From a virus, in the IMG/VR virus record IMGVR_UViG_3300046820_000975, positions 47,925-111,924 of that record: a stretch of 64,000 bases of DNA. The stretch is one strand, 5' to 3'. The notes beneath the pieces were generated by a model. That model saw only the letters and a program-made list of their open reading frames with translations, made no database searches and was not told the origin of the DNA. The number at the start of each line of letters is the position of its first letter. Within the stretch, counting starts at the first letter, position 1. Shown piece by piece: positions 19,121-41,800 of the stretch. Made by a program: the position numbers and the translations under genes.

Positions 19121-19467
19121 TAACCAAAGGAAAAATCAAAATTTCAGTTTATGAAACTGAAGTGCAACTCATGGTTGTAGATTCAATGAGTGAATTGCAA
19201 GATTTGCTTATGAAAAAAGGTATTATGGTTCATGATGTAACTAATTGTGAAGGAATTACTTTAGGGTATAACAAAACGTATTTAGTTGTATTGGTTAAAG
19301 AACTTATTAGCCATAATCTAATTGCTCATGAATTGTTTCATTTAGCAACTATGGTTACAAAAGATATTGATATTGAGGATGAAGAATCTCAAGCGTGGTT
19401 GAATGGATACATAACAGAGCATGTGTACAAAATTTTGAACAAGAAAAATATAACAATCAAGTTATAA
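19117..19467 (+). CDS. Small zincin-like metallopeptidase domain protein
   Basis: IAHELFH followed by EESQAWL (third ligand); coupled by ATGA and TAATG overlaps. Confidence 0.7.
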   Translation: MITKGKIKISVYETEVQLMVVDSMSELQDLLMKKGIMVHDVTNCEGITLGYNKTYLVVLVKELISHNLIAHELFHLATMVTKDIDIEDEESQAWLNGYITEHVYKILNKKNITIKL

Positions 19468-22400
19468 TGAGTGACGAATTACAAAACGCTGGCACCAATA
19501 AGACCAATACCTTTACAGAAGGTATGGTCAAAGATACTGCTGATATTTATTTATCAGACAAAGTATGGACACATGCTGTCAATGCTATCAACAATACGCA
19601 TGTTGGTGAGACAGGTACATTAAGTAATGAATCAGCTAACTTTAAAACTGAAGAAGCTCCTTATACAATTATTGGTGCTGTTCATAAAACAGATACAGAA
19701 TGGATATTGTTTTCAACAAATGATATGGATTCTGAGATTGGTATTTATGATGAGCGTACAAGCACTTATACTCAAGTTGTAAATGATAGGTGTTTGGGAT
19801 TCAAACGTTCAAATATTATTACTGGTGTTTGTAAAGAAAACTACGATTGTACACGTTCTGTATATTGGCAAGATGGATTAAATCCTGATAGAGTTTTAAA
19901 TTTAAGTAGAGTACCTTATAAAATAATTGGAGATAGTGATCCATCTGAATGTGTGACTCCTATTTATTCTGATGAACTTGATTGTGATGCTTTACGTTTA
20001 CATCCATTAGTTGATCAACCATGTGTTACTATAAGAAAAGGAACTGGTGCTGGACAATTAAATAATGGTAGTTATATAGCTGTTGTTGCATATTCTGAGA
20101 ATGGTGTAAGATTAACAGATTATTCTGCACCAAGTCAACCACAAGCTTTGTGGGAACATGTTGGTATTGGAGGATCTTTGGATGTTAAAATAACAAACTT
20201 AGATACAAATTTTCATGAATTTGAATTAGTAATTGTTGCTGTAATTAATCAACAAACAATTGCTAAACGTATTGGTTATTACAGTATTGACCAATCAGAA
20301 ATACATTTAGATATTTTTGGTCAAGACTTACCAACTGTTGATTTAGCTCAAATTCCACTTAAGCATATTGTATATGAAAAGAGTGATAAGATATTTGAGT
20401 TAGGTGGGTACATGATTCGTACAGGTGTAACAACACAACCACAATTCAATTATCAACCTTTAGCAAATAATATACGCGTTAATTGGCATAGTGTAGAATA
20501 TCCAAAAGATTACTACTGGCATGGTGGAAATATCACTGGTTACATGCGTGATGAAGTTTATTCATTCTTTATACGCTGGGTGTATAATACTGGTGCAAGA
20601 AGTGCATCATACCATATTCCTGGAAGACCTAAAAACGCAAATGATTCTATTGCAGTAGGATCAACACCAGATAAAATTTCAGCAAATGAAACAGAACGTT
20701 GGCAAGTATACGATACCTCAACAGCTGGACTGGCTACAAATACCATTACCAAAGATGGTGGTCTTATTGTAGATGGAGGTCAAATGGGGTATTGGGAGAG
20801 TACAGAAAGATATCCAAATGATAAACCAGAAATCTGGGGTTCATTGTGTGGAGAACCAATACGTCATCACAAAATGCCATCAAATGAAACAACTCACATT
20901 CATAAAGGTAATAACATTTATATCCTTGGTGTTGAGTTTGTTAACATACAGCATCCATTAGATGAGAATGCAAATCCAATAAAAGATATTGTTGGGTATG
21001 AAATTTTGCGTGGTTCACGTGAAGGAAATAGAACTATTGTAGCCAAAGGTGTTTTCAATAACATTGTTCAGTATGACATGAATGGTAATCCACCAGCTGG
21101 TATGAAAGGATGTCATCAAAACTATCCATACAATGATTTGAGACCAGATAAATTCTTGACTCAAAACTATGCTTCTTTAGATGAAGGTACATCTGACTAT
21201 GGTAGAATTAATGGAGAATCTGATATTGATATATTTAAAGATTATCTTTTTAGTTTTCATTCTCCTGAAACAAACTTTGTACGTCCATACTTAGGTGGTA
21301 ATCATGTTAAAATTTATAGAGAAGAACGTGGTTATTCAGTTGGTGCATTTGAAGTACCATACAAACATCCAAAGAACAAGTTTATAACTAACGCTGTATT
21401 TGGTATGTCTGCATTAGTGTCTGTAGGTATTGCAGCATTAAATGCGGTTGGTAGTTCTACTACATCTGGTGGCCAATATATAGCTGCAGCACCTTATGGA
21501 GCTGGTACTGTACTTACTTCAGAAGGTTCTCGTCAGTCTGGTATTGCATCTTCTATTCCTGATTTAGTAAACGCCAGTTTTTTACAATCGCTAGGTATTT
21601 CATCTGCGGGTGGTACATTTGCTACAGCTGCTGCAGTAGCTACTGTTGTATTATCTTCTACCTATTATTTAGGTCAAGCAATGGATCTTGTATTAGATAT
21701 CTTTTACAAGATGATTCCACATCGTGATTATATGTTACAGTATAATTCACACGCACATTACGATTCATCTGCAGCACTTTCAAATTCTGCAGTTCCAAGC
21801 GGTATTAAACCTATGTATCGTAGAAACATACCATCTGGTTTAGCTAAGTATATTGGTTCTGGTGTTCAAGATTTTAGTCCAACTTACAGAGTTAACAATG
21901 TTAATCGTAACAAATTTGTTATGGTTCAAACTGCAAGCTCAATTCCAACACCAGCATTTTCAGATACCACAAGACAACGTCTAAGTGATGTTAGAGCAAC
22001 TAACAAACCATTTGAAAATTTTAGTCAACCTACATCTACTTATTATGGTGCAATAAAAGTTGATTTTCAAAATCAATATGGTCAGTTAACAAGCATTGTA
22101 CAATTACCAACTGACAGTTGTGTATTGGCTACTACACCAAATGGATTAATGCGTTTTAGATCAGGTGTTATATTTGGTGGAGATGTATACATAAATCGCT
22201 ATACAGAAAAGAATCCTTATTACTTCTTCAATAGTTGGTTGCAAGGTGAACCAAATGGTACAGAGTTTAATTATCGTAACTATGTTAATGGTCCAGCACC
22301 AAGATACTGGATAGATACTAATAAGTATGATATTACTGACTTAAACATAACATTACAGAACTGGCATTTAAACTTTGTCACTCCTTCTGACTTCCATAGA

Positions 22401-24119
22401 TTAGATAACAAAGATGCATTTAGAGGTGTATTTAGTGTGCGTAACTCTTATGCTTATTTGTTTTATAATGGTGTACGTGACTTCTATACAGAAAGTGAAT
22501 TAAACTTAGCGTATAGAGATTATGGTGAACCTGATACAGAAAAGTTTTATGATGTTTATGGAGGATCATTTGCTGATCTTTCTACAATGTTTAGATCTGA
22601 CAAAATTACATCTGCAATACAATATAAATATGATTTATCACTTTCATCCAGCAAGTTATTCTCTAACTTTGCATCTTGGGGATCAATCTTACCACGTGAC
22701 TACGACCCTGAAATCTACAGCACATGTTTTGAGTATTACCCTAAACGAGCAATCTACTCTTTACAACATCAGTCAGGGTTAAAGCGTGATAACTGGAGAA
22801 ACTATTTACCACTCAACTACAAAGATTTCAGTGGTAAAATTTCCACAATCAAAGCCTTAAATGCTCAAGGTGCTATTATATTATTTGAAGATGCAGAACC
22901 AGTACAATTTGCTGGTGTTGACCAACTTCAAACTAAATCTGGTACTAAGTTTACAATTGGTGATGGTGGATTGTTCCAGCAAAATATGCAAAGTATTGTA
23001 AATGCTGATGATTCGTTAGAGTATGGCTCATGTACCTCATCAAGATCTGCAGTAAATACACCATTTGGTTTATTCTACATATCTCAAAAACTAGGTAAGA
23101 TCATGCACTACACTGGTGGTGGATTGGATGAAATTTCACGTAATGGTCTTAAGTACTGGTTTACAAACCACTTACCAAGTAAGTTGTTACAAGCTGCAGG
23201 TGATTATAAATTGTATGACAATCCAGTATTTGGTATTGGTTGTCAAGCAATGTATGACCAACAATTTGAATTAGTATACTTTACTAAGAAGGATTACATA
23301 CCATTACGCGATGATTTGTATTACAACGATCCTACAGGTATTCCTTATTACATGGTGGAAGGAATTAAAAACTATGTTCAATTCTCTAATAAAGAATTCT
23401 TTAAACCTTGTAGTTGGACAGTAAGTTATGATCCAAAATCTAAAGCTTGGGTTAGTTTTCACTCATGGGTTCCTGATTTATTTATACCAGCGTATAGTCA
23501 TTTCTTTACAACAAAAGACAATGGTATTTGGAAACACAATAGTATGTGGAACAAATACTGTGAATATTATGGTGTACAGTATCCTTGGGAAGTTGAATTA
23601 CCAGTAATAACACCTGGTGCAATAACAACTCTCAGAAGTGTAGAATATTGGATGGATGCATATAAATACACAAATGCTGGCCAAGATTATAAACATATTT
23701 TAGATTATAATTTTGACACTGCAATTATTCATAATTCTGAGCAAATATCTGGAATTTTAAAGTTAAATTTGAAATCTAAAAATAACCCAGGTCAACAGAT
23801 ACAATATCCATTGGTAGGGTTATATGGGACTGATATCTTAGTAAGTAAAGAAGAGAATAAATATCGCTTCAATACATTCTGGGATGTTACAAATAATAGA
23901 GGAGAGTTTAACTATAATGAGACACCAATGTGGATTACTAGCTGCAATGGTTACCAACGTACGATAAATCCTTCGTATATTAATTATAACAAGTCACCTT
24001 TTGAACGTAAAAAGTTTAGACATTATGGTAATAGAATTGTATTACGCAAAAATGGTGTGATGGATGTTAAAATGATACTTAAATTACATACAACTAAACT
24101 TCTTCAAAGTCCACGATAA
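19467..24119 (+). CDS. Tail stabilisation / muzzle (nozzle) protein
   Basis: About 1550 aa, beta-rich. N-terminal F..GM.KD, GYMRDEVYSF, FGGDVYI and WTVSY...W.SFHSW.P motifs. The ATG at 19467 overlaps the upstream TAA. Confidence 0.8.
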   Translation: MSDELQNAGTNKTNTFTEGMVKDTADIYLSDKVWTHAVNAINNTHVGETGTLSNESANFKTEEAPYTIIGAVHKTDTEWILFSTNDMDSEIGIYDERTSTYTQVVNDRCLGFKRSNIITGVCKENYDCTRSVYWQDGLNPDRVLNLSRVPYKIIGDSDPSECVTPIYSDELDCDALRLHPLVDQPCVTIRKGTGAGQLNNGSYIAVVAYSENGVRLTDYSAPSQPQALWEHVGIGGSLDVKITNLDTNFHEFELVIVAVINQQTIAKRIGYYSIDQSEIHLDIFGQDLPTVDLAQIPLKHIVYEKSDKIFELGGYMIRTGVTTQPQFNYQPLANNIRVNWHSVEYPKDYYWHGGNITGYMRDEVYSFFIRWVYNTGARSASYHIPGRPKNANDSIAVGSTPDKISANETERWQVYDTSTAGLATNTITKDGGLIVDGGQMGYWESTERYPNDKPEIWGSLCGEPIRHHKMPSNETTHIHKGNNIYILGVEFVNIQHPLDENANPIKDIVGYEILRGSREGNRTIVAKGVFNNIVQYDMNGNPPAGMKGCHQNYPYNDLRPDKFLTQNYASLDEGTSDYGRINGESDIDIFKDYLFSFHSPETNFVRPYLGGNHVKIYREERGYSVGAFEVPYKHPKNKFITNAVFGMSALVSVGIAALNAVGSSTTSGGQYIAAAPYGAGTVLTSEGSRQSGIASSIPDLVNASFLQSLGISSAGGTFATAAAVATVVLSSTYYLGQAMDLVLDIFYKMIPHRDYMLQYNSHAHYDSSAALSNSAVPSGIKPMYRRNIPSGLAKYIGSGVQDFSPTYRVNNVNRNKFVMVQTASSIPTPAFSDTTRQRLSDVRATNKPFENFSQPTSTYYGAIKVDFQNQYGQLTSIVQLPTDSCVLATTPNGLMRFRSGVIFGGDVYINRYTEKNPYYFFNSWLQGEPNGTEFNYRNYVNGPAPRYWIDTNKYDITDLNITLQNWHLNFVTPSDFHRLDNKDAFRGVFSVRNSYAYLFYNGVRDFYTESELNLAYRDYGEPDTEKFYDVYGGSFADLSTMFRSDKITSAIQYKYDLSLSSSKLFSNFASWGSILPRDYDPEIYSTCFEYYPKRAIYSLQHQSGLKRDNWRNYLPLNYKDFSGKISTIKALNAQGAIILFEDAEPVQFAGVDQLQTKSGTKFTIGDGGLFQQNMQSIVNADDSLEYGSCTSSRSAVNTPFGLFYISQKLGKIMHYTGGGLDEISRNGLKYWFTNHLPSKLLQAAGDYKLYDNPVFGIGCQAMYDQQFELVYFTKKDYIPLRDDLYYNDPTGIPYYMVEGIKNYVQFSNKEFFKPCSWTVSYDPKSKAWVSFHSWVPDLFIPAYSHFFTTKDNGIWKHNSMWNKYCEYYGVQYPWEVELPVITPGAITTLRSVEYWMDAYKYTNAGQDYKHILDYNFDTAIIHNSEQISGILKLNLKSKNNPGQQIQYPLVGLYGTDILVSKEENKYRFNTFWDVTNNRGEFNYNETPMWITSCNGYQRTINPSYINYNKSPFERKKFRHYGNRIVLRKNGVMDVKMILKLHTTKLLQSPR

Positions 24120-26425
24120 TGGCACAAAATAGAGATATACTACTGAATTTTATCTTGTCTCAACGTCAGAGAATTGAGCCAGATCCTGCAAGACAAATGT
24201 TCCAGGTGGCTGGTACATCTGTGCGTCCAACAACAGCTAACAACATGATGCAGAGTGCTGTTGCAAACGTAGCTAAACAAAAACAAGCTCAAGCTCAAGC
24301 ACAAGCTCAGGCTGCAGCTGCGCAAGCAGCACATGAAGCTGAATTGGAAAGATTGCGTACTCAGTATGGTCAACAAGCAGCATCACGTATGACATCTGCT
24401 CAAGTAGCTCAAGCTAACAGAATGAGTCAACAAGCTGCTGCTGCACCACAAGCAACTGTAGCGCAAACTCAAACTCCTACAACAGTACAACAAATTCAAA
24501 ATTTTGCTACTCACCCATTGCAATCAATGACAGGTCGTGAGAATAATTTTGATATGTTGGCAGGTATTCCAGGTTATATAGCAACGGTAGCAGCTCCAAA
24601 TACTGCATACAATTTAACAGTTGGATTGCCTGATACTGCAGCAGATATTGCCAATGCAACAATTGGTGCTTCAGGAGAACTTTTAACTGGGCAACCTATT
24701 TCGCCAGAAACAAAACTTGCTGCATATAATACAGCTAATCGTTTATTAGATGCATCAGCAGTTTTACCTGTTGGTAAAGCTATTCAACCTGTAATGAAAG
24801 TATTTGGTCCTACAATGGAAGAAGTTGCAATGGCAGGAAAACATATATTACATTCAGGTGTAGGTCAAGTTGCAGAACAAGCTGCACACAAAGCTGCACA
24901 TAAGGCTGTTCACCATCAAGTTGAACATTTGGCTGACCATGGCGCAGATCAAAATGCCAATCAAACTCATCAATATACACAAAATATGAATAACTCATAT
25001 GAAAATCCATCACATGCTTATGGTGGTTTAATGAAATTTTTAGTAGGTGGAAGTAAAATTCATATTGATCCATCAAAGAAGGGAACGTTTACTGCTCAAG
25101 CTACTCGTATGAATATGGGTATCCAAGAAGCTGCTAGACATATTATGGCTAACAAAGAAGATTATTCACCTGAAATGGTTAAGAAAGCTGTGTTTGCACA
25201 TAACTTTGCAAAACAAATGGGTGGGTCATTAGAACAATATGGTTATGCAGGTGAAGTTTCTCCTAATGCACCTATTGATTTTAGTAACTATGTACCAGCT
25301 GCAAATAATACATATATAGATAGAAGTGGTGCAGGTCAACCTATGCAGATTGTTAATGGTGCACTTCAATATGTTCCACAACCACAAATCAAACCTGCTG
25401 CTACTCCTACAGTTAATGGTAGACAAATTACAGGATATACATATGATGGTACACCATTGTATAAACATGACATGGGTGGATTAGCTAAGTTTATAGCAAT
25501 GTATCCATTGCAAAAATTTGATATTGGTGGATATACTCCTGATGAACCAGGATTTGCTCCAAACATGTTTCCTGCAAGAACAACAAGATCAGTACATACA
25601 GATCCTGAAGTAGCTGCTCAAGCAGCTCGTCAACGTGTACAACAAACTACAGTACATGAACCAGCTAATGTTAATTGGTATGTTCCACAAGAAGGACAAT
25701 ATCCTCAAGCACAAATAAGTCAAGCTGGTTATCCTCAAGCTGTATATGCTCCTACTCAAAGATTTGCTCCTATAGGTAACATGCCTGCAGAAGCAATGTC
25801 TGATCAAGCTCAAATGATGAAATGGCTTGCTGCAAATCCAGGAGTATCTGGATTTACTGCTGCTTATCCTAATGGAGCACCTGCTCCAACACCTGGTAGT
25901 GTTACATATCCTATTACTGGAGGTGAAGATAAAGTAACGCCTTATAATGGAGGTGATTTACCTACAGTTGTTAAATCTGCGGTGCGTCCTTCAAAAGCTG
26001 ATCCATTTGGTAATGGTTTAACAAAAGATGATGTTAAGAAAGTTCAACGTGAACTTATTGCTTCTGGTATTTTGGAACCATCGGGTAAGAAATTTGCTAA
26101 TGGAGAAGATCGCGAAGTTGACGGCATGTGGGGTCCTAAAACTCAAGCAGCGTATGAAAAGTATATTGCTAAAAAGAATTTAGAAAGTATGGAACTTATG
26201 CCTGAAAGATGGAATACTCCTTCCATGGAACAATATGTACCAGGGCAAATTCCAACACAAGCTCCAGCTGAACCATCACCAATGCCTCAACGTTATGCAG
26301 GTATGGATATTCAACCACGTCGTACTGGTAGTGCTTTAAAAACTGAAAAGCGTGGCAAAGATGAAAAAGCTTATGGTGGATACAGTGGATATGGATTTGC
26401 TAAATGGTTAGATCAATTTAAATAA
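24119..26425 (+). CDS. Internal virion/cargo protein, modular, with a C-terminal peptidoglycan-binding domain
   Basis: Q/A/P-rich; GG-motif linkers; DVKKVQREL...VDGMWGPKTQAAY matches the PG_binding_1 pattern. Confidence 0.6.
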   Translation: MAQNRDILLNFILSQRQRIEPDPARQMFQVAGTSVRPTTANNMMQSAVANVAKQKQAQAQAQAQAAAAQAAHEAELERLRTQYGQQAASRMTSAQVAQANRMSQQAAAAPQATVAQTQTPTTVQQIQNFATHPLQSMTGRENNFDMLAGIPGYIATVAAPNTAYNLTVGLPDTAADIANATIGASGELLTGQPISPETKLAAYNTANRLLDASAVLPVGKAIQPVMKVFGPTMEEVAMAGKHILHSGVGQVAEQAAHKAAHKAVHHQVEHLADHGADQNANQTHQYTQNMNNSYENPSHAYGGLMKFLVGGSKIHIDPSKKGTFTAQATRMNMGIQEAARHIMANKEDYSPEMVKKAVFAHNFAKQMGGSLEQYGYAGEVSPNAPIDFSNYVPAANNTYIDRSGAGQPMQIVNGALQYVPQPQIKPAATPTVNGRQITGYTYDGTPLYKHDMGGLAKFIAMYPLQKFDIGGYTPDEPGFAPNMFPARTTRSVHTDPEVAAQAARQRVQQTTVHEPANVNWYVPQEGQYPQAQISQAGYPQAVYAPTQRFAPIGNMPAEAMSDQAQMMKWLAANPGVSGFTAAYPNGAPAPTPGSVTYPITGGEDKVTPYNGGDLPTVVKSAVRPSKADPFGNGLTKDDVKKVQRELIASGILEPSGKKFANGEDREVDGMWGPKTQAAYEKYIAKKNLESMELMPERWNTPSMEQYVPGQIPTQAPAEPSPMPQRYAGMDIQPRRTGSALKTEKRGKDEKAYGGYSGYGFAKWLDQFK

Positions 26426-26431
26426 ACCAAT

Positions 26432-29290
26432 ATGATAGACAGTTTTTTAAGAATTGCGGGTGTAAAAAGTGAAGCTGAATTTTACAAAAAATACCCAACA
26501 CAGGAATCTTTTTTTGAAGATCATCCTGAAGCTATTGAATTGTCTAAACATGAAATAGGAGGACAGTTTAGAATTAGAGATACTGAAACAAACCCTATGA
26601 TGTTAAAGGCTGCTGAAGGATTTCAAATGCCTGGTTATACACCACAAGAAGGTGATAACATTTATACACAAACATCACAACATACTCTTGCTGATTTAAA
26701 AAACAGTGATTGGAACAAAGGTCTTGCTACTATTAACAGCTTGGGTAACTATAACAATATGTTAGGTCAGTTACCTGACAAAGGTTTATTTGGTAAAATT
26801 AAAGCTGGCGCTGGTATTGCTGCTGGTGCTTCAGGTGCCATATTAGGATATGAAAAAATGTTCAATCCTAATAAAACAACTACAAACACTTTAGTTAATA
26901 CAAATACTGGTGAATTTGGTTCAGCTGAAGATGTTATTAAACAACGTGCTAAAACTGCTAAAGAAAAAGAAGTTAGTACTGCGTTAGGTGTACACCCTCC
27001 AATGGTTGCACAGAATAATGAATTTTCATTTCCTAATTTTGCACCTGGTACTCCTGAGTTTAATAACTTTGCAACAAATGGTTTTCAAGGTTTAGGAGCA
27101 AAAACATCTCCTACTAAACCTACAGTTGCTAGTGGTCCAACTAATACTGCTCCTGTTCAACCAACAACATCTACTGCACCAGGTTCAACCATGAAAGCTA
27201 CTGGTTCTGGTATGCAATCAATGTATAATCAAAATGAAATTGATCAACAGTTAGGTTTAACAACTAATCAGTATGGTGGATTAACCAAGTTTTTACCTGA
27301 TGAAGCATACACAGATGAATACCCAATGATGGCAAAAGGTGGGTATACTGTAACAAGAAGTCATGATCGTAAAGGTAAAACTCACAAAGTAACAGGACCT
27401 GATGGAACTGTTAAGTACTTTGGTGATTCTAAGTTAGGACAACATCCTAATGATCCTGCAAGAAAGAAAGCTTTTTATGCTAGACATAAACATAACTTAG
27501 AAAAAAATCCTTATTTCAGAGCATTTGCTAGAGCTACTTGGGAAGAAGGTGGTGAAGTTAATGAAATGAAACATGGTGGTGAAATGATACGTAGAGCAGA
27601 TGGTAGTTATTCACAAAGAGGATTATGGGATAATATTAGAGCCAATGCAGGTTCTGGTAAAAAGCCTAGCAAAGAGATGTTAGAACAAGAAGCAAAGATA
27701 AAAGCTGCTTATGGTGGATTAATGAGATTTGAAGAAGGAGGCGCAGGTAATACAAATCAACCTGTTACACAAACAAAACAAATATCAGGAACTACACAGG
27801 CTATACCTGGTCAACAAGCATCTTATAATGCAACTATTACTCCAGGTAATCAAAATACAGGAAATACTGTAAATGCTTTAAATACTTCTGCTACTGTTGG
27901 TAATAATAATTATTCAGTAACAGGTAATGCTAATGTTGCAAATGATAGATTAGCAGATTATGGTGTAAATGCAAATGTAAACAAAGGTAATTTTAGTGGA
28001 GGTGCTAGTTATAACACTACAACTCAACCAGGAAGTCCAGATAAATATACTGCAAATGCTGCTTATAATTCTCCATCAGGTTTAAACATAAATGGTTCTC
28101 TCAATGGAACAACTGCTACTGGTGTCAATGATGTAAATCTTGGAGCTTCTTACAATAAAAATAATGTACAAGCACAAGCACAATATACTAGAAATTTAAA
28201 TACACCTGGTGCTTATAATTATACAGGTTCTGTTGGATATGGTACACCTAAGATGAATATAACTGGTAATGTTAGTGGTAATAATAATGCACCAGTAAGT
28301 TCATATGGTGTAACAGCTGGATATTCACCAGCTCCTGGTGTAACAGCTACTGCAAATTATACACATAATGTAGGATCAAGTCCAGAACAACCAGCTAACT
28401 CTGCCAATGTTGGAATGCGTTATAATGTTCCAAGTTCTACACCAAGACAACAACCAAAAACATTTACAAATGCTGTACCTGCTCCTGATCCATTTTTGTC
28501 TTCAACACAACAACAAAAATTTGGAGGATTGATGAAATTTGTAAATGGTGGTGAACCTACGTTTAAACAATGGTTTGCAGAAAATGCAGGCAGACCTGAT
28601 GTAATGAGTAATGTTGGTAATTACCAAGCATTGCAACGTATGTTTTTAGATGAGAACCCTATGGCTCAAACAGCTCAGGGTGCATATGGTCCAACAAACA
28701 ATGGGATGTTCAGTAATGAACCTGCGCAATCAGCATTATCTGCACCAATGCAATCACAATATACTGGTAGAAATGCAGGTACACGTTCTGGTATGGCGTC
28801 TGTATATAATACTAATCAACAAACAGATTGGACAGATCCTGCAATAGCTGGTGCTAATACAGCAAATGTAGCACCAACAGCTAACCAATTAAAATTCCAA
28901 CAGTTTGCAAACAAGTCTATCAAACGTGGAGATGATTCAGGAACAATTGCTGCTAATAATGCATTGCAAGGTTTAGGTATGGCTAGCTCAGCTTTAGGTA
29001 CCATGGATAAAGAAGCAGAGTACAATAAAAGATTGCGTGAAATTGGTAATACAAATTTCTCTACACAACCTTCAAATCCAACAAATCCATTTGGTAATTA
29101 TACACTAAATGCTGGTCCTGCATCTAACTTTGGTTTAGTAGCAAACACTCCAATACAAGATATTGGTACTAGTGGAATTGCTGCAAAATATGGTGGATCT
29201 AAAATGTATAGAGAAGGTGGTACATATTTATTGTCACCTGAAGAAGTTCGTAACATTTTAGCTAATGGTGGTGAAGTAGAGTTCATATAA
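26432..29290 (+). CDS. Internal virion/cargo protein, modular (basic modules plus a beta-barrel-like domain)
   Basis: N-terminal SEAEFYKKYP..ESFF motif; about 12 GG motifs; Asn/Gly/Tyr-rich amphipathic strand region; ends ILANGGEVEFI. Confidence 0.6.
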   Translation: MIDSFLRIAGVKSEAEFYKKYPTQESFFEDHPEAIELSKHEIGGQFRIRDTETNPMMLKAAEGFQMPGYTPQEGDNIYTQTSQHTLADLKNSDWNKGLATINSLGNYNNMLGQLPDKGLFGKIKAGAGIAAGASGAILGYEKMFNPNKTTTNTLVNTNTGEFGSAEDVIKQRAKTAKEKEVSTALGVHPPMVAQNNEFSFPNFAPGTPEFNNFATNGFQGLGAKTSPTKPTVASGPTNTAPVQPTTSTAPGSTMKATGSGMQSMYNQNEIDQQLGLTTNQYGGLTKFLPDEAYTDEYPMMAKGGYTVTRSHDRKGKTHKVTGPDGTVKYFGDSKLGQHPNDPARKKAFYARHKHNLEKNPYFRAFARATWEEGGEVNEMKHGGEMIRRADGSYSQRGLWDNIRANAGSGKKPSKEMLEQEAKIKAAYGGLMRFEEGGAGNTNQPVTQTKQISGTTQAIPGQQASYNATITPGNQNTGNTVNALNTSATVGNNNYSVTGNANVANDRLADYGVNANVNKGNFSGGASYNTTTQPGSPDKYTANAAYNSPSGLNINGSLNGTTATGVNDVNLGASYNKNNVQAQAQYTRNLNTPGAYNYTGSVGYGTPKMNITGNVSGNNNAPVSSYGVTAGYSPAPGVTATANYTHNVGSSPEQPANSANVGMRYNVPSSTPRQQPKTFTNAVPAPDPFLSSTQQQKFGGLMKFVNGGEPTFKQWFAENAGRPDVMSNVGNYQALQRMFLDENPMAQTAQGAYGPTNNGMFSNEPAQSALSAPMQSQYTGRNAGTRSGMASVYNTNQQTDWTDPAIAGANTANVAPTANQLKFQQFANKSIKRGDDSGTIAANNALQGLGMASSALGTMDKEAEYNKRLREIGNTNFSTQPSNPTNPFGNYTLNAGPASNFGLVANTPIQDIGTSGIAAKYGGSKMYREGGTYLLSPEEVRNILANGGEVEFI

Positions 29291-29305
29291 GAAACTGCAC
29301 TTAAT

Positions 29306-29383
29306 TTAGGAAAAGTCTAACTAATTTTGTACTTTTAAATGTAAGAGGTTTAGTGTGAGTTTCCTTTAAACTTCAAAAGTTTA
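29306..29383 (+). promoter_or_regulatory. Promoter-like motif with two 17-bp palindromic operators
   Basis: GTACTTTTAAATGT at 29329; TAAATGT-AAG-AGGTTTA (29336-29352); perfect TAAACTT-CAA-AAGTTTA (29367-29383) overlapping the ATG. Confidence 0.6.
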
Positions 29384-32300
29384 TGCAAAGAATACGTATT
29401 AAAAAAGCTCCAAATAAAGGAGACCAACGCGACTACAGTCTTTATGACAGAACTAGTTTAAATCCAGGTGCACCAGATAATACTGAGCACATAGGAACTA
29501 CTATGGGTCCAGTAGATCGCGAAGATGCCAATGTAGAAGTTGAAAGAGGTGAAGTTGTTATTGGTGATACAAACCAAGATGGTTTTTTAGAACTATTTAC
29601 GTTCACTGGTAAACCTCACAGTAAAGGAGGTACTCCAGTTAATATACCACCAGGTTCATTTATTTATTCTAATACACGTAAACTGCGTATTAAAGATGCA
29701 GAATTATTGAAAAGTCAGTTTGGACTTTCAATGAAGAAAGGTGGATGGACTCCTGCTGAAATTGCAAATAAATTTCAAATTAATGAGTATGTATCTGATT
29801 TAAAAAATCCAGATACAGATAACCTTACAAAGCGTTCTTCAGACAGAATGCTTAAAAACAATTTGCAGAAGTTAGGTATTCTTGCGTTGATTCAAGAATC
29901 AATGAAAGGATTCCCTGATGGTATTCCTGCAATTGCTGAACCTGTTATGCAAGAGATGGGCGTAGATCCATCTATTATTACTGGACAACAACCACAAGAA
30001 CAAGCTCCGCAATTACAAGAAGCTCCTGAACAAGAAGTACAAGAGCAACCACAAGAAGCACCAGCTGAAGAATCTGGAGAAGGCATGCCATCTTTAGAAG
30101 AGTTTCAAGCTATGCAAGAACAAGGTATGCAAAAGTATGGTGGATTAACACAATATGCTGGTGGTGGGATGACAGTTCAGCAAGCGCAAGCTTTAAGTAA
30201 GAATTTGATTGCTAAATATCAAGATGCTTATAAAAGAAAAGATTATGCTGCATTAGCAACATTAGCACCACAGTTAAGACAAGCATCAAATCAGATTAAT
30301 CAATTTAATGATGCTGGTTGGTATTCATTAGGTATGATACCTGGAACAGATCAATCAGCATTTAATAGTTATACAAGTCAGTTAAGTCAAGCAGCAAATG
30401 ATATTGAAAGAAATATTATACCACAAAGTAATTTTGTTAGTACTATTGGTAATCAGCTTAAAACATTAACTGATCAATATCAAGCTGATTATAATAAGTT
30501 GAATTCAGGACAATTGACAAATTTGTCAACTGAAGATATGCAAAAGATAAAACAAATCTATGAGTTAAATAATAGATTTGCAGCTCATGCAGCTAATATT
30601 AAAGCTGGTGGTGCTGGTATGCCTGTATCTGAATTAGCTAGATTACAAAATCAGTTAGCAAAATATTCAGCTCCATCATCTACTGGTGATAATGGAATGT
30701 CTAGTACATTAGATAGCGCTGAAGTATTAAATGCAGAATCATCTGCACCAGCTTCTACAAATACATATACATCATCTCCATTTAAAAAAGGTGATGTTTA
30801 TAAATCTAAATGGGGTAGTTATGAGATTGTAAATCCAGCAGCTGATGCTGATGGAATGATTCAGCTTGTTAACAAACAAAATAATGCAAAGACTAAAGTT
30901 AAGTTAAGTACAATGCAACAAGCAATTGGTACTGGTTTAACTAAAGGTGGAGCTGATCTTATTAGTACTGCTCCTGCTGAAACTCCTGCACAACCACCAG
31001 CACAACCAAGAGTTGGTTCTACAACTACTCCAAGTCAAGGAACACAAACAACACCAGCAGCTTCATCTGGAAGATCATCACAAGGTCCTTCAAGTGCTAC
31101 TACTGGACCAATGTTCTCAGATGATATTTACAAGATGCGTTATGGTGGATATTTAAAACGATTTGATGGAGCTGGTACAAACAATGTTCCATTAAACACT
31201 AATGCTACTACACCTGCAACTGATGAAGAAAAGTTTGTTAGTGATGTTTCAGTTAATGGTCAAACGTATAAGAAATATAGCAAAGGTGATTTAGTAATTA
31301 TTAAAGATGCTAATGGTAGAACATTATCATCTAAGAATATTAAAACTGGTGAAAAGACAGACTACAGACCAGATGCAACAATTACATATAATGCTAAGAA
31401 TGAGCGTATTAACATTGATGCACCAGATCCATCTGTAGATTATAAAGCTAAAGATTGGAAAGGTAAATATTCAGCAAGCGCAGATGAGTTTGAAAAACTT
31501 ATAAATGATCCAGGAAATGAAGATTTGCGTAACTCTATTTATGAAGAGTTTAAAAAAATTGCACAAGATCATGCTGCAAGAACAGGAGATAAAAGCTTAT
31601 TAAACATTGATAAAGCTAATGCTATTCAAATGCTTATTAAAGGTAACAGAGATAATGCTACCATTAATAGTGTTTATGAAAAAAATCCTGAGTTATTAAA
31701 AAGTGGAGATTGGGATAAAACTCAACCTAATGATTACGTAGATGCAGCAGGTAATAAAGTAAGTGGTAAAAACCTTATTTATAATAGAGTTGCTAGCAAA
31801 CTTGGTATTACACCAATGGATGCTCTTGGAACTAAAGTTTTCCAAGGAATTTATCAAGCTTCTCAGAATGTTGCACGTCAACCACAATACGTTGAGAAAT
31901 TTACTAAAAGTGGATTTGACATTACACCAATTGGTCTTAGTGATCAAACACGTTTAAATCAACCAATTTCTCCTGTAGATGAAATCTATGGTAACACTAC
32001 TGTAGGTCAAATGTACAAGTTAAAACAAGATCCAGAAATACCAATTACTGTTCCTCCAGGAAAGAAAGTAAAATACTATTGCGTTAAACAAGCAAATGGT
32101 ATGGGTAATGTGGTATCTGTCACTTATAATGAAGGTGAACAACCTATTGCACCTGCAGGCGCAGGAGCAGGATTTGATGACAGATCTACTGCTGCTATGA
32201 ATTGTTCACAAGAACAACCTGGATTAGAGCAAGCACCAGTTAAATCTGGCCCATGGTGGTTACCTGATATTGTTAACTATACTGGTACATTAACAGATAA

Positions 32301-33087
32301 GATTAACAGATACGAACCTACGTTAGAGCAATTAAGCTCACGTACTCCAGGATATGTTTTATTAGATCCAACACGTCAATTGGCTGCTAACCAAAGTCAA
32401 ATGCAACAATACAACGACATGCTTTCAAATACGATGGCAGGTAATGTTGCAGCAGCTACTGCGTTAGGTGCTTCTGGTGAAGGATTTAATAATGCTGCTA
32501 ATGTATTAGCATCTGTTGAGGGACAAAACGTTGGTATTGTTAATAATGTTGCGGCAAGTAATGCGCAGATTCAAAATCAACAAGATATGTTGAATGCGCA
32601 AGCACGTCAGAATTATGTTGGTCAAATGGCAACATTAAATCAAAATCTTGACAATGCTGAGCAACAACGTAAGTGGAGACAAATAGCTGCATTTAACAAT
32701 GGTACTAATAACTGGTATCGTAAAAAACAAATGGAGCAAGTATTATTCCCTCAAGTATTTATCAATCCAATCTCTGGTGATGCAGAATTTTCTGGCAAAG
32801 GTAGAGATTATGCAGGATATGATGTATATTCGCCCGCGTATGCATCTAACACAAAAGCTAATACTTTTGATGTTCAAGGTACATATAACAAATATATCAA
32901 GGCTGGTAATACAGATGCACAAGCTAAATGGTTAACAGAAAAAGAACTTGAGTTAAATAAAACTTCAAGTTCTGGTTCAGATGCTAGTTCAAGACAAGCA
33001 TATATGAATGCTATTATGAACCAATCAGCTGGTCAAGCAATTGAGCGTTGGGGCGGTGCAATTACACCTTGGGATTTTGACGTTTAA
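29383..33087 (+). CDS. Cargo (ejection) protein, crAss-like
   Basis: ANVEVERGEVV...GKPHSKGGTPVN N-terminal domain; Q/N/A-rich helical C-terminus; synteny between muzzle and vRNAP genes. Confidence 0.65.
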   Translation: MQRIRIKKAPNKGDQRDYSLYDRTSLNPGAPDNTEHIGTTMGPVDREDANVEVERGEVVIGDTNQDGFLELFTFTGKPHSKGGTPVNIPPGSFIYSNTRKLRIKDAELLKSQFGLSMKKGGWTPAEIANKFQINEYVSDLKNPDTDNLTKRSSDRMLKNNLQKLGILALIQESMKGFPDGIPAIAEPVMQEMGVDPSIITGQQPQEQAPQLQEAPEQEVQEQPQEAPAEESGEGMPSLEEFQAMQEQGMQKYGGLTQYAGGGMTVQQAQALSKNLIAKYQDAYKRKDYAALATLAPQLRQASNQINQFNDAGWYSLGMIPGTDQSAFNSYTSQLSQAANDIERNIIPQSNFVSTIGNQLKTLTDQYQADYNKLNSGQLTNLSTEDMQKIKQIYELNNRFAAHAANIKAGGAGMPVSELARLQNQLAKYSAPSSTGDNGMSSTLDSAEVLNAESSAPASTNTYTSSPFKKGDVYKSKWGSYEIVNPAADADGMIQLVNKQNNAKTKVKLSTMQQAIGTGLTKGGADLISTAPAETPAQPPAQPRVGSTTTPSQGTQTTPAASSGRSSQGPSSATTGPMFSDDIYKMRYGGYLKRFDGAGTNNVPLNTNATTPATDEEKFVSDVSVNGQTYKKYSKGDLVIIKDANGRTLSSKNIKTGEKTDYRPDATITYNAKNERINIDAPDPSVDYKAKDWKGKYSASADEFEKLINDPGNEDLRNSIYEEFKKIAQDHAARTGDKSLLNIDKANAIQMLIKGNRDNATINSVYEKNPELLKSGDWDKTQPNDYVDAAGNKVSGKNLIYNRVASKLGITPMDALGTKVFQGIYQASQNVARQPQYVEKFTKSGFDITPIGLSDQTRLNQPISPVDEIYGNTTVGQMYKLKQDPEIPITVPPGKKVKYYCVKQANGMGNVVSVTYNEGEQPIAPAGAGAGFDDRSTAAMNCSQEQPGLEQAPVKSGPWWLPDIVNYTGTLTDKINRYEPTLEQLSSRTPGYVLLDPTRQLAANQSQMQQYNDMLSNTMAGNVAAATALGASGEGFNNAANVLASVEGQNVGIVNNVAASNAQIQNQQDMLNAQARQNYVGQMATLNQNLDNAEQQRKWRQIAAFNNGTNNWYRKKQMEQVLFPQVFINPISGDAEFSGKGRDYAGYDVYSPAYASNTKANTFDVQGTYNKYIKAGNTDAQAKWLTEKELELNKTSSSGSDASSRQAYMNAIMNQSAGQAIERWGGAITPWDFDV

Positions 33088-38800: not shown

Positions 38801-41800
38801 AATGATGCAAAAGAATACATGCAAAGCGTGGATGTGTTATACAATCCAGAAGCTTTTGAGTATGCTACATCAAGAATGTTAGATGGTGAAATCAAATTCA
38901 AAATTAATGCTACTTTAAAACAGTTGTCAGAAAGTACAGATAATTCAATTGCTATGATCATTCTTGGGTATCAGATAACTGATCCAAATGAACAAAGAGC
39001 AATTGCACAAGAAGTATTTGATGCTGTACAAAAGTCTAATGAGTATACTAAACTAATAGCACTTATAGTTGACCCTAATTTAGGGTATCAATCTGGTACT
39101 TACGCAAATGAATTATTTCAATCTTTATTCAAAAAGCTTACAGATAAAGTAAGAGAGATTTCAAATCGCTATGATAAGTCTGGCGCAACTGATATCTCAG
39201 ATACTGATTATGAAGCGTTTAAGAAAGATGGTACAGTACCTGAAGATGTAAAGCAGCGTATAGCTCAAATGCTTTATGATCGTAATCCTCTTACAGATAA
39301 GATGAAAGAGGTTTATGATAAACATAAAGAAGACATTGACAAAATGGTTGATGCTTTAGAAGAAGAGTTTAAGAGAAAGCGTGATGCAGCTCGTGGTCAA
39401 AAGATCTATGATAATTCTGCTAACTCGTATGAAGGTCAAGCATCAAAGCGATTATACGTCATGGAGAATGATCGTAGATTTGCAGAAGACATTGAGAAAT
39501 ATTATGAAACACGCGATGGTCAAGTAGGTAGCCTTAAAGAGATGGTTCAAAAGGCAATTGAAAATCCTTTAACACATCCTTATATTAAAGAAGGATTAAA
39601 GAAATTAGTTGATAAGATAGGTGATGATGCGCTAGTTAAATTTGATTCAAAACAAACTATTGCTCCAGGATACTATGATCCTAAAGAGCATCTTGTTGTA
39701 TTAGATCCAGAATTAGTAAACTCTGGTAATGTAAGTTTTGAAGCTGTTATGTTCCATGAATTAATACATTACTTTACTTCAAGAGAACTTAATAAAGATA
39801 CTGAGTTTACTCAGAAAATTGAGAAAATGTATGCTAATGCCAAAGTGTTTATGATGGCAAACAACATTAGTACCAATTACTATGGCATGTCTAACTTGGA
39901 TGAATTCCTTGCTGAAGCATTTACAAATCCAGAATTCCAAAGTCAGTTAAATAAAATTCCAGGTGATCAAGGTAAAACCATGTGGCAATCATTCTTGGAT
40001 GCATTAACTAAGTTTTTAAAAGAAGCTTTGAATGTTAATGTTACTCCATCAATGCTTACAGATGTAATGAAAGCTGTACAGGAGTTTATTGATGATCCAA
40101 CTTACAATGGTGCAGTAGAGTTCTTAAAAAACAAAGGACTAACTGATGCTGAGATACAAGAATTTTCACGTGCTGAAGTATTGTCTATTGCTGAACAAGA
40201 AGGATATAATAAAGATCAGAATCCTCCAGCTTCAGAAGATTCATTAAATAAACCTGAAGAAATTATTCCTGAATTACAACAAGCTGCAGAAGGTCTTACA
40301 GGACAAGAAACTGGTGCTGTTGCAGAAATAATCCCTCCTACAGATTCTGAAAACATGACTGCTGAAGAAATTGAAAGACAAGCAACTTCTTTAGCTGAAA
40401 ATGATGTAAAGGAAAATACAGAAGCTTTAGAAAGATTAACTGGTAAAGGTCAAGTTGGTAGTACTGTTACAGATGTAGCTTCAAATGAAATGTCTGGTGC
40501 TCCTGACATGAGTCAATTATTAGCTGGTAAATTAGGTGCAGGCGCAACTGTTAATGTACCTATCAAAAATGGTTTAGTACAAATTACTATTAATGATAAC
40601 AATGTATATAAGGAAGCTTATGTATTCAATGTTAAAGACGGTGTAATTGTTAAAGCTACACATGTCACTAGATTTAAAAACTCTACAGAACCTACAGCAG
40701 ATAAAAAGACACAGGTTGCTAATCCTATTGAAACTTATAATAATCTTGCGTCTAATCCAGCTTACAAAGTTGATGTGCGTGATGATGATAAAGTCAAAGA
40801 AACACCTGCACAACAAACAACTACTCCAGATATTCAAGCTAAAAAAGCTGAGATTGAAAAAAGAAGAGAACAAGAAATCAAAGAGAACGTTCAATTACTT
40901 GATGTAAATGATGTAAGAAGACCTAATGGTGCAATTGGTACACAAGGGTTTGATCCATCAACAATGAAAGATTTAGTAAAATTTATATCAGGTAAGATGG
41001 GATTTGCAATACCATCTGAATTACTTGATAAAAAGACTGATAAATTAAAACCTCTAATTGATTATATAATTGAAAATCAAGACATTAAAGCTAAAATACT
41101 TGATTATATTACAAGCAATCCATCAGAAATATCTGTCATGCCTGATGATTCTATTCAATTTTTGGATGGTAACCATAGAGCAAATTTATTAAACATCATT
41201 GGTTCTGCAGTTATTCCTGTTATAAATCAGACTTCAAAAAAACAAATTGATTCTAAATATGATGCAGAACTAGCTGCTTTAAATACTGAAAGTACTGGTG
41301 AAGCTGCTATAGCTTTAGATGAGAAAGTAAGTACAGCTCCTGTTGTAACTGGTAACATTGAAGTTAAAGGTACAGAAGAAACTGGGTTACAAGTAGTTGA
41401 TACTCAAACAAATACAACAGTTGCAAAAGATATTGAAAATTTAGATGAAGCTAACAAAATAGCACAATCATTTAACAACAGTGTATCTGATGTAGAAGTA
41501 GCAAAACAAATTCTAGATAAGTTGATGAATGGCAGTGCAACTCCTGAAGCTATTGTAGCATTCTGTGAATCAGCTAAAAACAGTTTGCGTTCATATAATA
41601 ATATGAATAAGACAGATCTTAAAACTTTAAGTGAGTATGCTAATACTCCTAAAGGTATGGAGTTGTTGACCAATCTAGCTAAAAAGAAATTGGGAATACA
41701 AGAAACAAAGAAGAAAACTGCAAAGGTTGAAAAGAAAGAAACTGCTGCACAACCTGATTTGTTTAACACTACTAACGAAACAACTAACAAAGATTTAACT

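Follow-up and report, generated by a model that had tools for sequence, protein, structure and literature searches.

A recurrent Gly-Gly seam at the module borders of three C1-related, putative cargo proteins of a crAss-like phage

Introduction

In an uncultured crAss-like phage, what role is played by the Gly-Gly motifs that recur along three adjacent genes, at the borders between one small protein module and the next? The Crassvirales, with their relatives, count as some of the most abundant phages known, and their particles store and eject megadaltons of protein. The genes, here called P1, P2 and P3, lie in IMGVR_UViG_3300046820_000975, a 111.9-kb record (89% complete) that matched no deposited phage in megablast and tblastn searches. 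Coordinates refer to the window, the whole stretch of 64,000 nucleotides of this record that was analysed. The original prediction, made from the sequence alone, held that the gene products are injected strings of modules, that the GG linkers (hereafter seams) are maturation cleavage sites or docking tags, and that the DNA repeated at them could seed module shuffling.

Gene neighbourhood and kinship with cargo protein 1

P1, P2 and P3 (2,954 aa in total) are neighbouring genes that follow a muzzle-like gene on the same strand:

19395..24119, plus strand: muzzle-like virion protein, 1,574 aa, preceding P1 (phrog_37948/15100 'virion structural protein')
24119..26425, plus strand: P1, 768 aa, counterpart of the N-terminal portion of cargo protein 1 (C1), with three seam motifs
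26432..29290, plus strand: P2, 952 aa, mosaic cargo protein with four seam motifs
29383..33087, plus strand: P3, 1,234 aa, with a conserved N-terminal domain (aa 1-213), a variable middle and a conserved C-terminal region

The muzzle-like ORF matches crAss001 gp44 (BLASTP, E 1.5e-4), an assignment which fixes the synteny of P1-P3, and the giant genes downstream match crAss001 gp47, gp50 (E 3e-11) and gp49. The order of the locus is that of crAss001 gp44-gp50, with P1-P3 in the slot between the muzzle-like gene and the virion-RNA-polymerase giants where crAss001 holds C1 (gp45) and C2. A giant protein beside P1-P3 combines a zincin with a reported ParB-like domain.

Sequence homology to known C1 proteins was found via P1, of which aa 300-368 are 58.6% identical to aa 229-298 of Dulem virus 41 C1 (E 2e-17, seam included) and aa 165-371 are colinear with aa 130-328 of IAS virus C1 (E 2e-7); P1 also matches the C1 proteins of cr128 and bajarodcaudo virus 1. 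P2 gave no direct BLAST match to gp45 itself, and PF25725 (crAss_CARG1) found no Pfam match in P1-P3 (E <=10 for whole proteins, <=1 for excised pieces) or in their orthologues. A weak likeness to the CARG1 part of C1 (aa 481-543) was detected by hhalign in P3 aa 93-175 (probability 51%, E 1.5e-4), and in one P2 homologue (P0119) CARG1 occurs alongside modules A, B and C, described below.

The C1 of crAss001 thus occupies the same slot as P1-P3, and the homology of C1 to P1 runs across the AYGG..GG seam and module C. Where gp45 is a protein of 842 aa with one or two long seams, the present phage spreads the function over three ORFs with about nine, and it has extra modules (A, B and a strand-rich region). 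P2 lies in the frame of P1, separated from it by TAA and 6 nt, and in the relatives L003-L006 it is fused to the P1 equivalent. The synteny with gp44-gp50, the P1-C1 homology and the GG-delimited modules bear out the view of injected cargo-type proteins built as strings of modules, and P1-P3 are probably particle-borne "cargo" proteins of a distant crAss-like phage.

Seams and modules

The seams and the modules that they delimit, all on the plus strand, are as follows.

25016..25051, plus strand: double seam AYGGLMKFLVGG, P1 aa 300-311
25052..25219, plus strand: module C, P1 aa 312-367, helical basic mini-domain 'IHI-P-KG-FT' with QMGG at its end
25469..25531, plus strand: seam DMGGLAKF...KFDIGG, P1 aa 451-471
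26369..26422, plus strand: seam-like C-terminal tail of P1, AYGGYSGYGFAKWLDQFK
27269..27343, plus strand: seam QYGGLTKF...MMAKGG, P2 aa 280-304 (pLDDT <50)
27344..27547, plus strand: module A, P2 aa 305-372, DUF5754-like alpha/beta mini-domain
27539..27580, plus strand: seam TWEEGGEVNEMKHGG, P2 aa 370-383 (pLDDT <50)
27581..27706, plus strand: module B, P2 aa 384-425, two helices, 'RADGSYS-RGLWDNIRAN-GSGKKP'
27707..27742, plus strand: double seam AYGGLMRFEEGG, P2 aa 426-437 (pLDDT <50)
28517..28552, plus strand: double seam KFGGLMKFVNGG, P2 aa 696-707
29186..29287, plus strand: double seam KYGGSKMYREGG and C-terminal tail ...LSPEEVRNILANGGEVEFI, P2 aa 919-952
30133..30168, plus strand: double seam KYGGLTQYAGGG, P3 aa 251-262
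31138..31176, plus strand: seam RYGGYLKRFDGAG, P3 aa 586-598 (G588 and G589 invariant in 5 orthologues)
33043..33084, plus strand: seam-like C-terminal tail of P3, ERWGGAITPWDFDV

The peptides on which the original prediction was built were all found in their places, and the repeated DNA TATGGTGGA occurs in exactly six copies in the window (26372, 27272, 27710, 29189, 30136 and 31141), its codons reading Tyr-Gly-Gly in every one. The idea that these proteins are punctuated by GG was upheld for the context of the dipeptide and not for its frequency, since the raw count of 30 is close to the ~25 predicted from the glycine content. The pattern [YFWM]GGxxx[FYW], on the other hand, occurs eight times in the 2,954 aa of P1-P3 and never in the other 22 ORFs of the window (17,736 aa); eight of its nine matches in the whole 111.9-kb record fall in P1-P3, and in 2,000 residue shuffles of these proteins it appeared 0.21 times on average and at most 3 times. 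Across 762 non-redundant GG contexts, position -3 is W, Y, M or F in 56%, position +2 is I or V, and conservation extends to both sides of the GG.

The claim that the motifs fall at module borders was confirmed by three tests in agreement. Among 263 homologues, 54-73% of the BLAST match ends in P1 and P2 lie within 6 aa of a GG, as against 12-14% for random positions. When module C was searched without its flanks and 142 diverged occurrences were scored for neighbouring GG, one stood directly upstream in 135 (95%; random 3%) and just downstream in 138 (97%; random 12%). All three seams around modules A and B were predicted by AlphaFold2 to be disordered linkers between folded mini-domains, and no ordered structure was obtained for seams, whereas module A reached a pLDDT of ~90 (3 strands and 3 helices), with structural matches to DUF5754 in the Atlas; in 40 sequences, each end of this module carries an invariant GG. 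The coincidence of border and GG may nevertheless be partly circular, because the GG abuts the first conserved residues of the modules and could be inherited with them as a domain cap.

Such caps would make the seams flexible ends of mini-domains that lack any specific partner, the aromatic residue or Met packing back on its own module, and borders would then coincide with GG because recombinants survive only if broken in linkers. In modules A and C the GG is at most 1 aa from the first conserved residue, AlphaFold2 confidence climbs right at the GG, and module families prefer flanks of their own (MANGG before A, MKYGG before C), all of which suit this account. It does not readily explain why one grammar is common to unrelated modules (A, B, C, CARG1 and the C-terminal tails), nor why the long form YGG-x3-F-x2-GG stands as a self-contained unit in disordered sequence with no fold beside it. 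This long form is moreover conserved from gut Steigviridae to the present phage, despite portals that are 22-26% identical. We regard the account as rather improbable, though less so than the accounts by cleavage and by a DNA-level signal discussed below.

The depth of conservation is apparent in P3, where at least 75 of 120 orthologues have the counterpart of the KYGGLTQYAGGG seam at the same place, preceded by an acidic linker, with column entropies of 0-2 bits in the motif and 3-3.5 bits in the flanks. Seam-like peptides also close the chains. In 62 of the 120 P3 orthologues [YFWM]GG occurs within the last 17 residues, typically as ..E[FY]GG.[MV].[LF]PW.[DE].[DE], and the tail core GG-x-[IVL]-E-[FY]-[ILM], found 50 times in the 263 homologues, lies at most 3 aa from the C-terminus in all 50, a conserved short peptide confined to the chain terminus; the tail samples were chosen by similarity to P2 and P3. 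The P2 tail was modelled as one helix (pLDDT 68-76), and weak DUF7210 matches were obtained in homologues. The seam pattern is real and widespread.

Module exchange and the repeated DNA

A comparison of relatives, close ones included, revealed modules gained, lost and reordered at the GG motifs, as had been anticipated. P2 has more than 900 homologues that share only parts of it; module B takes a different place in the chain in two relatives (L005 and L008), module C is carried by 1,555 representative clusters and occurs in Crassvirales C1, and relatives of P2 carry SET, YkuD, SLT, LysM and DUF3597 modules. Module A is also encoded as a free-standing ORF of 78 aa, MGNGG-...-TWKDGG-SYV, with both seams kept.

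Shuffling at seams is therefore supported by the break-points and the reordering, and it may be asked whether the DNA itself directs it, the near-identical seam codons (TAT GGT GGA TTA ATG AAA TTT) serving as microhomology for cassette exchange in the manner of the His-box motifs of T-even tail-fibre genes. Among direct repeats of the 9-kb region the seam forms the top family (36 nt, four copies, up to 83% identity), TAT GGT GGA is used in six of seven YGG copies although elsewhere only 25% of GG pairs read GGT-GGA (p ~1e-3 by our own estimate), and module order varies among relatives with break-points at seams. Exact DNA runs between seams, however, are just 9-12 nt, the amino-acid motif is conserved across phages whose DNA has completely diverged, and a strong codon bias (GGT 68%, TAT 68%) accounts for most of the identity. 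A conserved peptide and this bias suffice to produce the repeat, so that DNA-seeded shuffling, though possible, is not needed. A cause of the shuffling at the level of DNA is unsupported, and it is very unlikely that the seam is kept mainly as such a recombination signal.

A proposed hinge and docking anchor

P1-P3 are homologous to C1, modular and reshuffled, and their motif is confined to them, disordered, deeply conserved and placed at module borders. The reading which we favour, at a probability of roughly 0.5, is that the seams stay uncut and act as combined hinge and anchor (docking) motifs in an ejection protein that is threaded. P1, P2 and P3 would together represent cargo (ejection) protein 1, here divided among three genes and grown larger through the insertion of mini-domains, with each chain resembling beads on a string in which small, independently folding modules (A, B, C ('IHI..KG.FT'), a weak peptidoglycan-binding-like segment, the strand-rich region and the weakly CARG1-like domain) alternate with disordered linkers. 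Each junction and C-terminus bears one conserved short motif, Phi-x-x-G-G (Phi = Y/F/W/M) or the longer [AK][KR][YF]-G-G-x3-[FY]-x2-[GA]-G, which we read as a glycine hinge joined to a hydrophobic anchor that could place successive segments of the intact, extended chain either on neighbouring chains or on symmetric surfaces of the particle interior (portal wing, tail-barrel rings). Such a chain would be stored pre-threaded and exit in N-to-C order. As the junction is common to all module families, cassettes could enter, leave or change place at seams and packaging would go on undisturbed.

The structural comparison was afforded by gp45 of crAss001, the C1 described by Bayfield et al. 2023 (PMC10172136; PDB 7QOG, 7QOI, 7QOJ, 7QOL, 8CKB), whose residues 214-245 were located by cryo-EM at rings R1/R2 of the tail barrel, and its residues 425-552 at the portal wing. 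gp45 shares the [YF]GG motifs of P1-P3, and in it they abut both resolved docked segments: the first opens with F214 of Y208-G-G-P-L-E-F214, and the second runs from A425 of A-F-G-G-W to 10 residues ahead of Y561-G-G. That gp45 is one uncut chain is inferred and unproven in that study, in which its tryptic peptides span no seam; its text leaves the seam motif unmentioned and holds no occurrence of 'cleav' or 'proteoly'. The motif is apparently undescribed before. The P1 double seam AYGGLMKFLVGG is the positional counterpart of [FY]SAYGGP[LI]..GG in Steigviridae C1 proteins; the SAYGGP seam is kept in all five Steigviridae C1 homologues that carry it, and none was found in C2 proteins.

Adenain of adenovirus and pS273R of ASFV process core polyproteins at GG-X, the adenain consensus, (M/I/L)-X-G-G↓X, placing the hydrophobic residue at P4. 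Were a protease of the virus or its host to cut the seams likewise behind GG, small basic proteins and enzymes would be freed, either in the capsid or once injected. The seams are exposed and disordered, modules exist also as free-standing small ORFs, the split between P1 and P2 falls 13 aa past a seam, and the adjacent 2,047-aa cargo protein carries a HELIH zincin motif (HExxH; weak Peptidase_M76 match), zincins of polyvalent proteins having been proposed to process such proteins (PMC5512222). Searches of the 111.9-kb, 89%-complete record nevertheless returned no Peptidase_C5 or Peptidase_C48 match at E <= 1, although positive controls fired, and no C39 or S78 (prohead-type) protease, which leaves room for a protease of another kind or of the host. 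An adenain-type consensus was rejected for the seams, in which the enriched hydrophobic residue is at -3 from the first G, that is at P5 and not P4. Cutting a double seam would yield useless 8-mers, seams 5-17 residues from C-termini and the M-x-x-GG at the N-terminus of the 78-aa ORF make poor sense as cut sites, the residues past GG are conserved as well, and in gp45 the AFGG seam is ordered, forming the start of the portal-bound domain that was resolved. To our knowledge, no processed products of P1-P3-type proteins have been described, and the crAss001 papers show no band or peptide that speaks for or against cutting. Cleavage at the seams is possible but unsupported, and we consider it unlikely.

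Between the two functions originally offered for the linkers, the docking tag thus fits better than the maturation site of a polyprotein: cutting the conserved C-terminal tails would free only 5-12 residues, the motif is kept at both ends of the free-standing module, both sides of the GG are conserved, and the two docked gp45 segments begin at F214 (YGGPLEF) and A425 (AFGGW).

Comparison with known systems

The likeness to adenovirus and ASFV core polyproteins lies in the Gly-Gly at junctions of proteins known or predicted to be virion-internal, and giant viruses share some modules with the present cargo proteins (DUF5754, DUF5872); the motif of P1-P3 differs in running past GG, in sitting at chain ends too and in its hydrophobic residue at P5. 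These small viral DUF families and their relatives spread as cassettes within cargo proteins. The podovirus ejection proteins (T7 gp14-16, P22 gp7/16/20; reviewed in PMC8954989) are, as P1-P3 are predicted to be, virion-internal, mosaic and partly unfolded, exit through the tail and include family members with cell-wall-directed domains; no sequence relation to P1-P3 was found and a comparable junction motif has not been described.

The polyvalent proteins of phages and conjugative elements (Iyer, Burroughs, Anand, de Souza and Aravind 2017, PMC5512222) are multi-domain, mosaic and delivered with DNA, and the relatives of P2 resemble them in their SET, YkuD, SLT, LysM and DUF3597 modules, as does the giant protein beside P1-P3 in its zincin and reported ParB-like domain; that paper describes no conserved junction peptide, the words 'linker' and 'glycine' being absent from its text. 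The present family likewise unites unrelated domains in one chain, in a late/virion gene setting and with an architecture that varies among relatives. Its modules differ in being mostly 40-70-aa basic mini-domains of unknown function and not enzymes; no conflict-effector domain was recognised in P1-P3, while homologues have SET, YkuD and SLT.

For crAss-like phages the seam offers a concrete handle. It delimits every module and is kept between gut Steigviridae and an environmental relative that is very distant from them; of gp45, moreover, just two segments were seen docked in the crAss001 particle, and the start of each coincides with a seam. Residues to mutate, peptides to seek by mass spectrometry and places at which foreign modules may be inserted are all predicted by it.

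Encapsulin cargo-loading peptides and the capsid-targeting sequences of T4 internal proteins are short Gly/hydrophobic terminal or linker peptides that dock cargo in an HK97-fold shell. Proteins of the P2 and P3 types resemble these in their strictly C-terminal conserved tails, and the seam motif differs in being also internal and repeated; by analogy with crAss001, its putative receptor is likely to be the portal or tail barrel and not the capsid wall. More tentatively, the seam may be a general 'packaging grammar' of crAss-like virions: through repeated docking of the motif itself on the 12-fold portal and the rings of the tail barrel, any mini-domain bracketed by Phi-x-x-GG or YGG-x3-F-x2-GG would be accepted into the pre-threaded cargo chain. 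If so, it would explain the free swapping of injected modules and constitute a phage analogue of the encapsulin peptides that is internal, repeated and order-defining.

Genomic Setting of the Cargo Genes

The viral record (111,924 bp, estimated 89% complete) carries a terminase, a portal, and a major capsid protein recognised by PHROG matches, and the window covers its bases 47,925-111,924. In window coordinates the portal gene lies at 1514-4246 and that of the major capsid protein at 5629-7275, with putative ring proteins encoded by ORFs between 7445 and 19120. The source phage is, on sequence grounds, a distant crAss-like phage, since the nearest deposited relatives of its portal are those of Leptolyngbya phage Lbo-JY46 (31%), csAssE-Sib, and the Cellulophaga phages phi17:2 and phi4:1 (25%); many Crassvirales portals match at 22-23%. 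The features discussed here are as follows.

24119-26425, + strand: P1, first cargo-type ORF, 768 aa
26432-29290, + strand: P2, second cargo-type ORF, 952 aa
29383-33087, + strand: P3, third cargo-type ORF, 1,234 aa
35801-41944: 2,047-aa ORF with a HELIH zincin motif at about 39536-39787 (aa about 1246-1329; weak Peptidase_M76 match, E 0.005)

Upstream of P1-P3 lies a 1,574-aa “virion structural protein” matching gp44, the muzzle protein of crAss001, and downstream an 894-aa ORF is followed by three giants matching gp47, gp50, and gp49. The crAss001 cargo proteins C1 (gp45) and C2 (gp46) occupy the identical genomic slot (PMC10172136). A DNA-repair exonuclease homologue (15373-16686; phrog_704, E 1e-53) sits within the otherwise structural block running from the capsid to the muzzle genes.

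Megablast and tblastn searches of 50,697 deposited phage records with the region, P2, and its modules A and B returned no matches, and a search for related loci with P2 as the query found none. Pfam and PHROGs yielded nothing on P1-P3 except weak DUF5754 and PG_binding_1 matches, the PDB sequence search gave noise only, and Foldseek found no match to the model of modules A and B. At the end of P1 (aa 620-768; 25976-26422), weak matches to PG_binding_1 (E 0.043) and PG_binding_3 (E 0.12) around “DVKKVQRELIASG...DGMWGPKTQAAYEKY” suggest a peptidoglycan-binding module.

A Junction Peptide at Module Borders

The three proteins share a junction peptide, here termed the seam, of the form Phi-x-x-GG (Phi being Y, F, W, or M) or, as a double seam, the longer YGG-x3-F-x2-GG. 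All of the peptides quoted in the original prediction are present, and its “about 20 GG motifs” become, on recounting, some nine long seams and some 11 Phi-x-x-GG seams, the plain GG count (30 against 25 expected from Gly content) being close to expectation. The pattern [YFWM]GGxxx[FYW] occurs eight times in P1-P3 and not at all in the remaining 17,736 aa of the window ORFs (mean 0.21 and maximum 3 in 2,000 shuffles); genome-wide, eight of nine matches fall in these proteins. The ninth long copy, RYGGYLKRF, has a spacer of four residues. In 762 non-redundant contexts from P2 homologues, which, like those of P3, were picked by similarity to the query protein, an aromatic residue (W, Y, or F) or Met fills position -3 of the GG in 56% (3.3-4.7-fold enriched) and the second residue after it is I or V. 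Between the two best double seams of P2 runs a 258-aa, strand-like stretch rich in Asn, Thr, Gly, and Tyr (aa 438-695; 27743-28516), for which neither a family nor a PDB match was obtained.

More than 900 homologues of P2 are of like length and more than 1,200 are shorter, most sharing just 8-30% of the query at identities of up to 89%. The discrete shared pieces are module A (aa 305-372) and module B (aa 384-425) of P2 and module C (aa 312-367) of P1, together with the last 120 aa and, towards the N-terminus, a conserved core (aa 74-177). For 54% (P1) and 73% (P2) of the ends of BLAST matches to homologues, a GG stands no more than 6 aa away, as compared with 12-14% for random positions; with each distinct position counted once, the shares are 49% and 46%, respectively. 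So that the seam itself would not bias the sample, module C was also stripped of its flanks and searched against 1.84 billion cluster representatives. It matched 1,555 clusters, its position varying between 5% and 85% of the host protein's length; among the 142 fully flanked occurrences, 135 have a GG no more than one residue from where the module starts (random 3%), 106 have an aromatic residue or Met one to three residues ahead of that GG (random 2%), and 138 have a GG in the 9 aa that follow the module (random 12%). AlphaFold2, run on a 40-sequence alignment, modelled module A as three strands and three helices (pLDDT about 90) and module B with moderate confidence, the three seams around them scoring below 50. 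The claim that the modules are bordered by GG motifs is thus borne out by the BLAST ends, the flank test, and the structural models alike.

Chance or low complexity as the source of the motif is ruled out by the shuffles, the context enrichment, and the module C flank test. A β-hairpin turn for Phi-x-x-GG-x-[IV] is unsupported, AlphaFold2 showing no strands at the seams in either model; nor does YGGLMKF suit an outer-membrane β-signal, as its sixth residue is often Lys and the neighbours of most copies are helical basic modules.

The seam also closes proteins. The tail of the P2 type, ...GG-x-Y-x-L-S-x-E-E-[IV]-x-x-[IF]-L-x-x-GG-x-[IV]-E-[FY]-[IL], was seen 50 times in 263 homologues, every time at the very end, and it is there that AlphaFold2 places its sole moderately confident structure, a short helix. 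P3 orthologues bear a second seam-like terminal tail, ..E[FY]GG.[MV].[LF]PW.[DE].[DE], and P1 too ends in a seam. Both seams persist in a free-standing module A ORF of 78 aa, where the initiator Met takes the Phi position. Stand-alone module A ORFs of 78-123 aa (P0217, P0176) start M-G-[NR]-G-G, and the module structurally resembles giant-virus DUF5754 (Atlas TM 0.45-0.59).

Shuffling among Relatives and the Repeated DNA

Seven related loci were reached via the muzzle gene (61-75% identity). In four of them, L003-L006, the equivalents of P1 and P2 form a single ORF of 1,003-1,510 aa. In the present phage the two share one frame and are separated at 26423-26434 by TAA and 6 nt (TAA ACC AAT ATG), which looks from the sequence like gene fission 13 aa past a seam; recoding of the stop is unlikely because TAA is the normal stop, ending 22 of 25 genes. 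The cassettes differ among related loci (DUF5872, DUF5754, SET, DUF6973), and module B, which follows A here, precedes it in L008 and lies at the N-terminus in L005. P3 in related loci keeps its first 213 and last ~275 residues around an unrelated middle. The original prediction was to fall if module boundaries in relatives lay elsewhere than at GG motifs; they coincide with them. Between the seams of L003-L006 and of the homologous proteins P0052, P0072, P0120, P0216, and P0218 lie SET, YkuD (L,D-transpeptidase), SLT, LysM, SH3_5, DUF3597, DUF5872, and DUF6973 domains, so that the cargo proteins of related phages would carry a varied injected toolkit, in part directed at the cell wall.

The repeated DNA reported earlier was recovered at all six TATGGTGGA sites, and among direct repeats of the cargo region the seam family ranks first. 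Six of seven YGG copies use identical codons; given the codon use (GGT 68%, GGA 25%, TAT 68%, with GGT-GGA making up 25% of other GG pairs), this is somewhat above the codon-bias prediction (p about 1e-3 by our own estimate). Exact runs among seams reach 9-12 nt only, and the repeat may ease illegitimate recombination. The octamer GCTGGTGG, identical to E. coli Chi and lying within Ala-Gly-Gly codons, occurs seven times in the window against 0.76 expected from dinucleotide shuffles, scattered over both strands (e.g., 30157, 30604, and 48068), an excess likely due to the GCT/GGT preference for Ala-Gly-Gly.

Docking or Cleavage: Comparison with crAss001

Residues 300-368 of P1, comprising the double seam AYGGLMKFLVGG and module C, are 58.6% identical to the C1 of Dulem virus 41 (E 2e-17) and match three more Crassvirales-type C1 proteins (cr128, bajarodcaudo virus 1, and IAS virus), that of IAS virus being colinear with P1 aa 165-371. 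The pattern [FY][SA]AYGGP[LI]...Phi..GG is kept in five of five C1 proteins (crAss001, DAC15, bajarodcaudo virus 1, Dulem virus 41, and cr128) and is absent from the C2 proteins of the same five phages; in IAS virus C1 the corresponding stretch reads ALGGYLNHFGNGG. The gp45 seams of crAss001 are Y208-G-G-P-L-E-F214, A425-F-G-G-W...Q-G-G-D-F437 (425-437, AFGGWLNTQGGDF), and F559-A-Y-G-G563. Just two parts of gp45 are resolved, residues 214-245, which bind the tail-barrel rings R1/R2, and residues 425-552, which bind the portal wing, each in 12 copies, and Bayfield et al. proposed that a single chain bridges the ~420 Å between them (PMC10172136). On our reading of the published residue numbers against the sequence, both resolved pieces begin at a seam and the second stops ten residues short of the next. 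The motif is not discussed in that paper, whose text contains neither “cleav” nor “proteoly”.

The original prediction had left the seams as either maturation cleavage sites or docking tags, and the docking half fits better: we favour a binding-and-hinge motif because conservation spans at least 11 residues on both sides of the GG, copies occupy chain termini, a cut double form would give 8-mers, and in crAss001 the resolved portal-bound domain opens with a seam whose residues are ordered. The same four points weigh against cutting by a protease, a possible reading to which the incompleteness of the record (89%) and the HELIH motif in the adjacent 2,047-aa protein lend some room, zincin processing of polyvalent proteins having been proposed (PMC5512222). 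Apart from that HELIH region, by sequence a candidate polyvalent-protein-type MPTase, nothing protease-like was seen in the neighbourhood of the cargo genes. Peptidase_C5, C48, C39, and S78 were sought by HMM in the six-frame translation of the record and none turned up, with the positive controls detected. Two crAss001 papers and their supplements hold neither gel-band nor peptide evidence for or against gp45 processing. Tryptic peptides that bridge a seam run to 35-65 aa.

A full-text literature search returned no paper tying Crassvirales cargo proteins to glycine motifs, and the polyvalent-protein paper (PMC5512222) mentions neither linkers nor glycine. New here are the flank test free of seam selection, the P1-C1 homology that runs through the seam, the agreement in position between seams and the resolved parts of gp45, the tails confined to the terminus, and the negative protease scan. 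The likeness to crAss001 extends to P3, whose N-terminal domain weakly matches, by profile comparison (probability 51%, E 1.5e-4), the second half of CARG1, the portal-binding domain of C1. As in gp45, the P3 domain is followed by a linker and then a seam. At least 75 of 120 orthologues keep that seam in position, and column entropy is low inside the motif and high on both sides.
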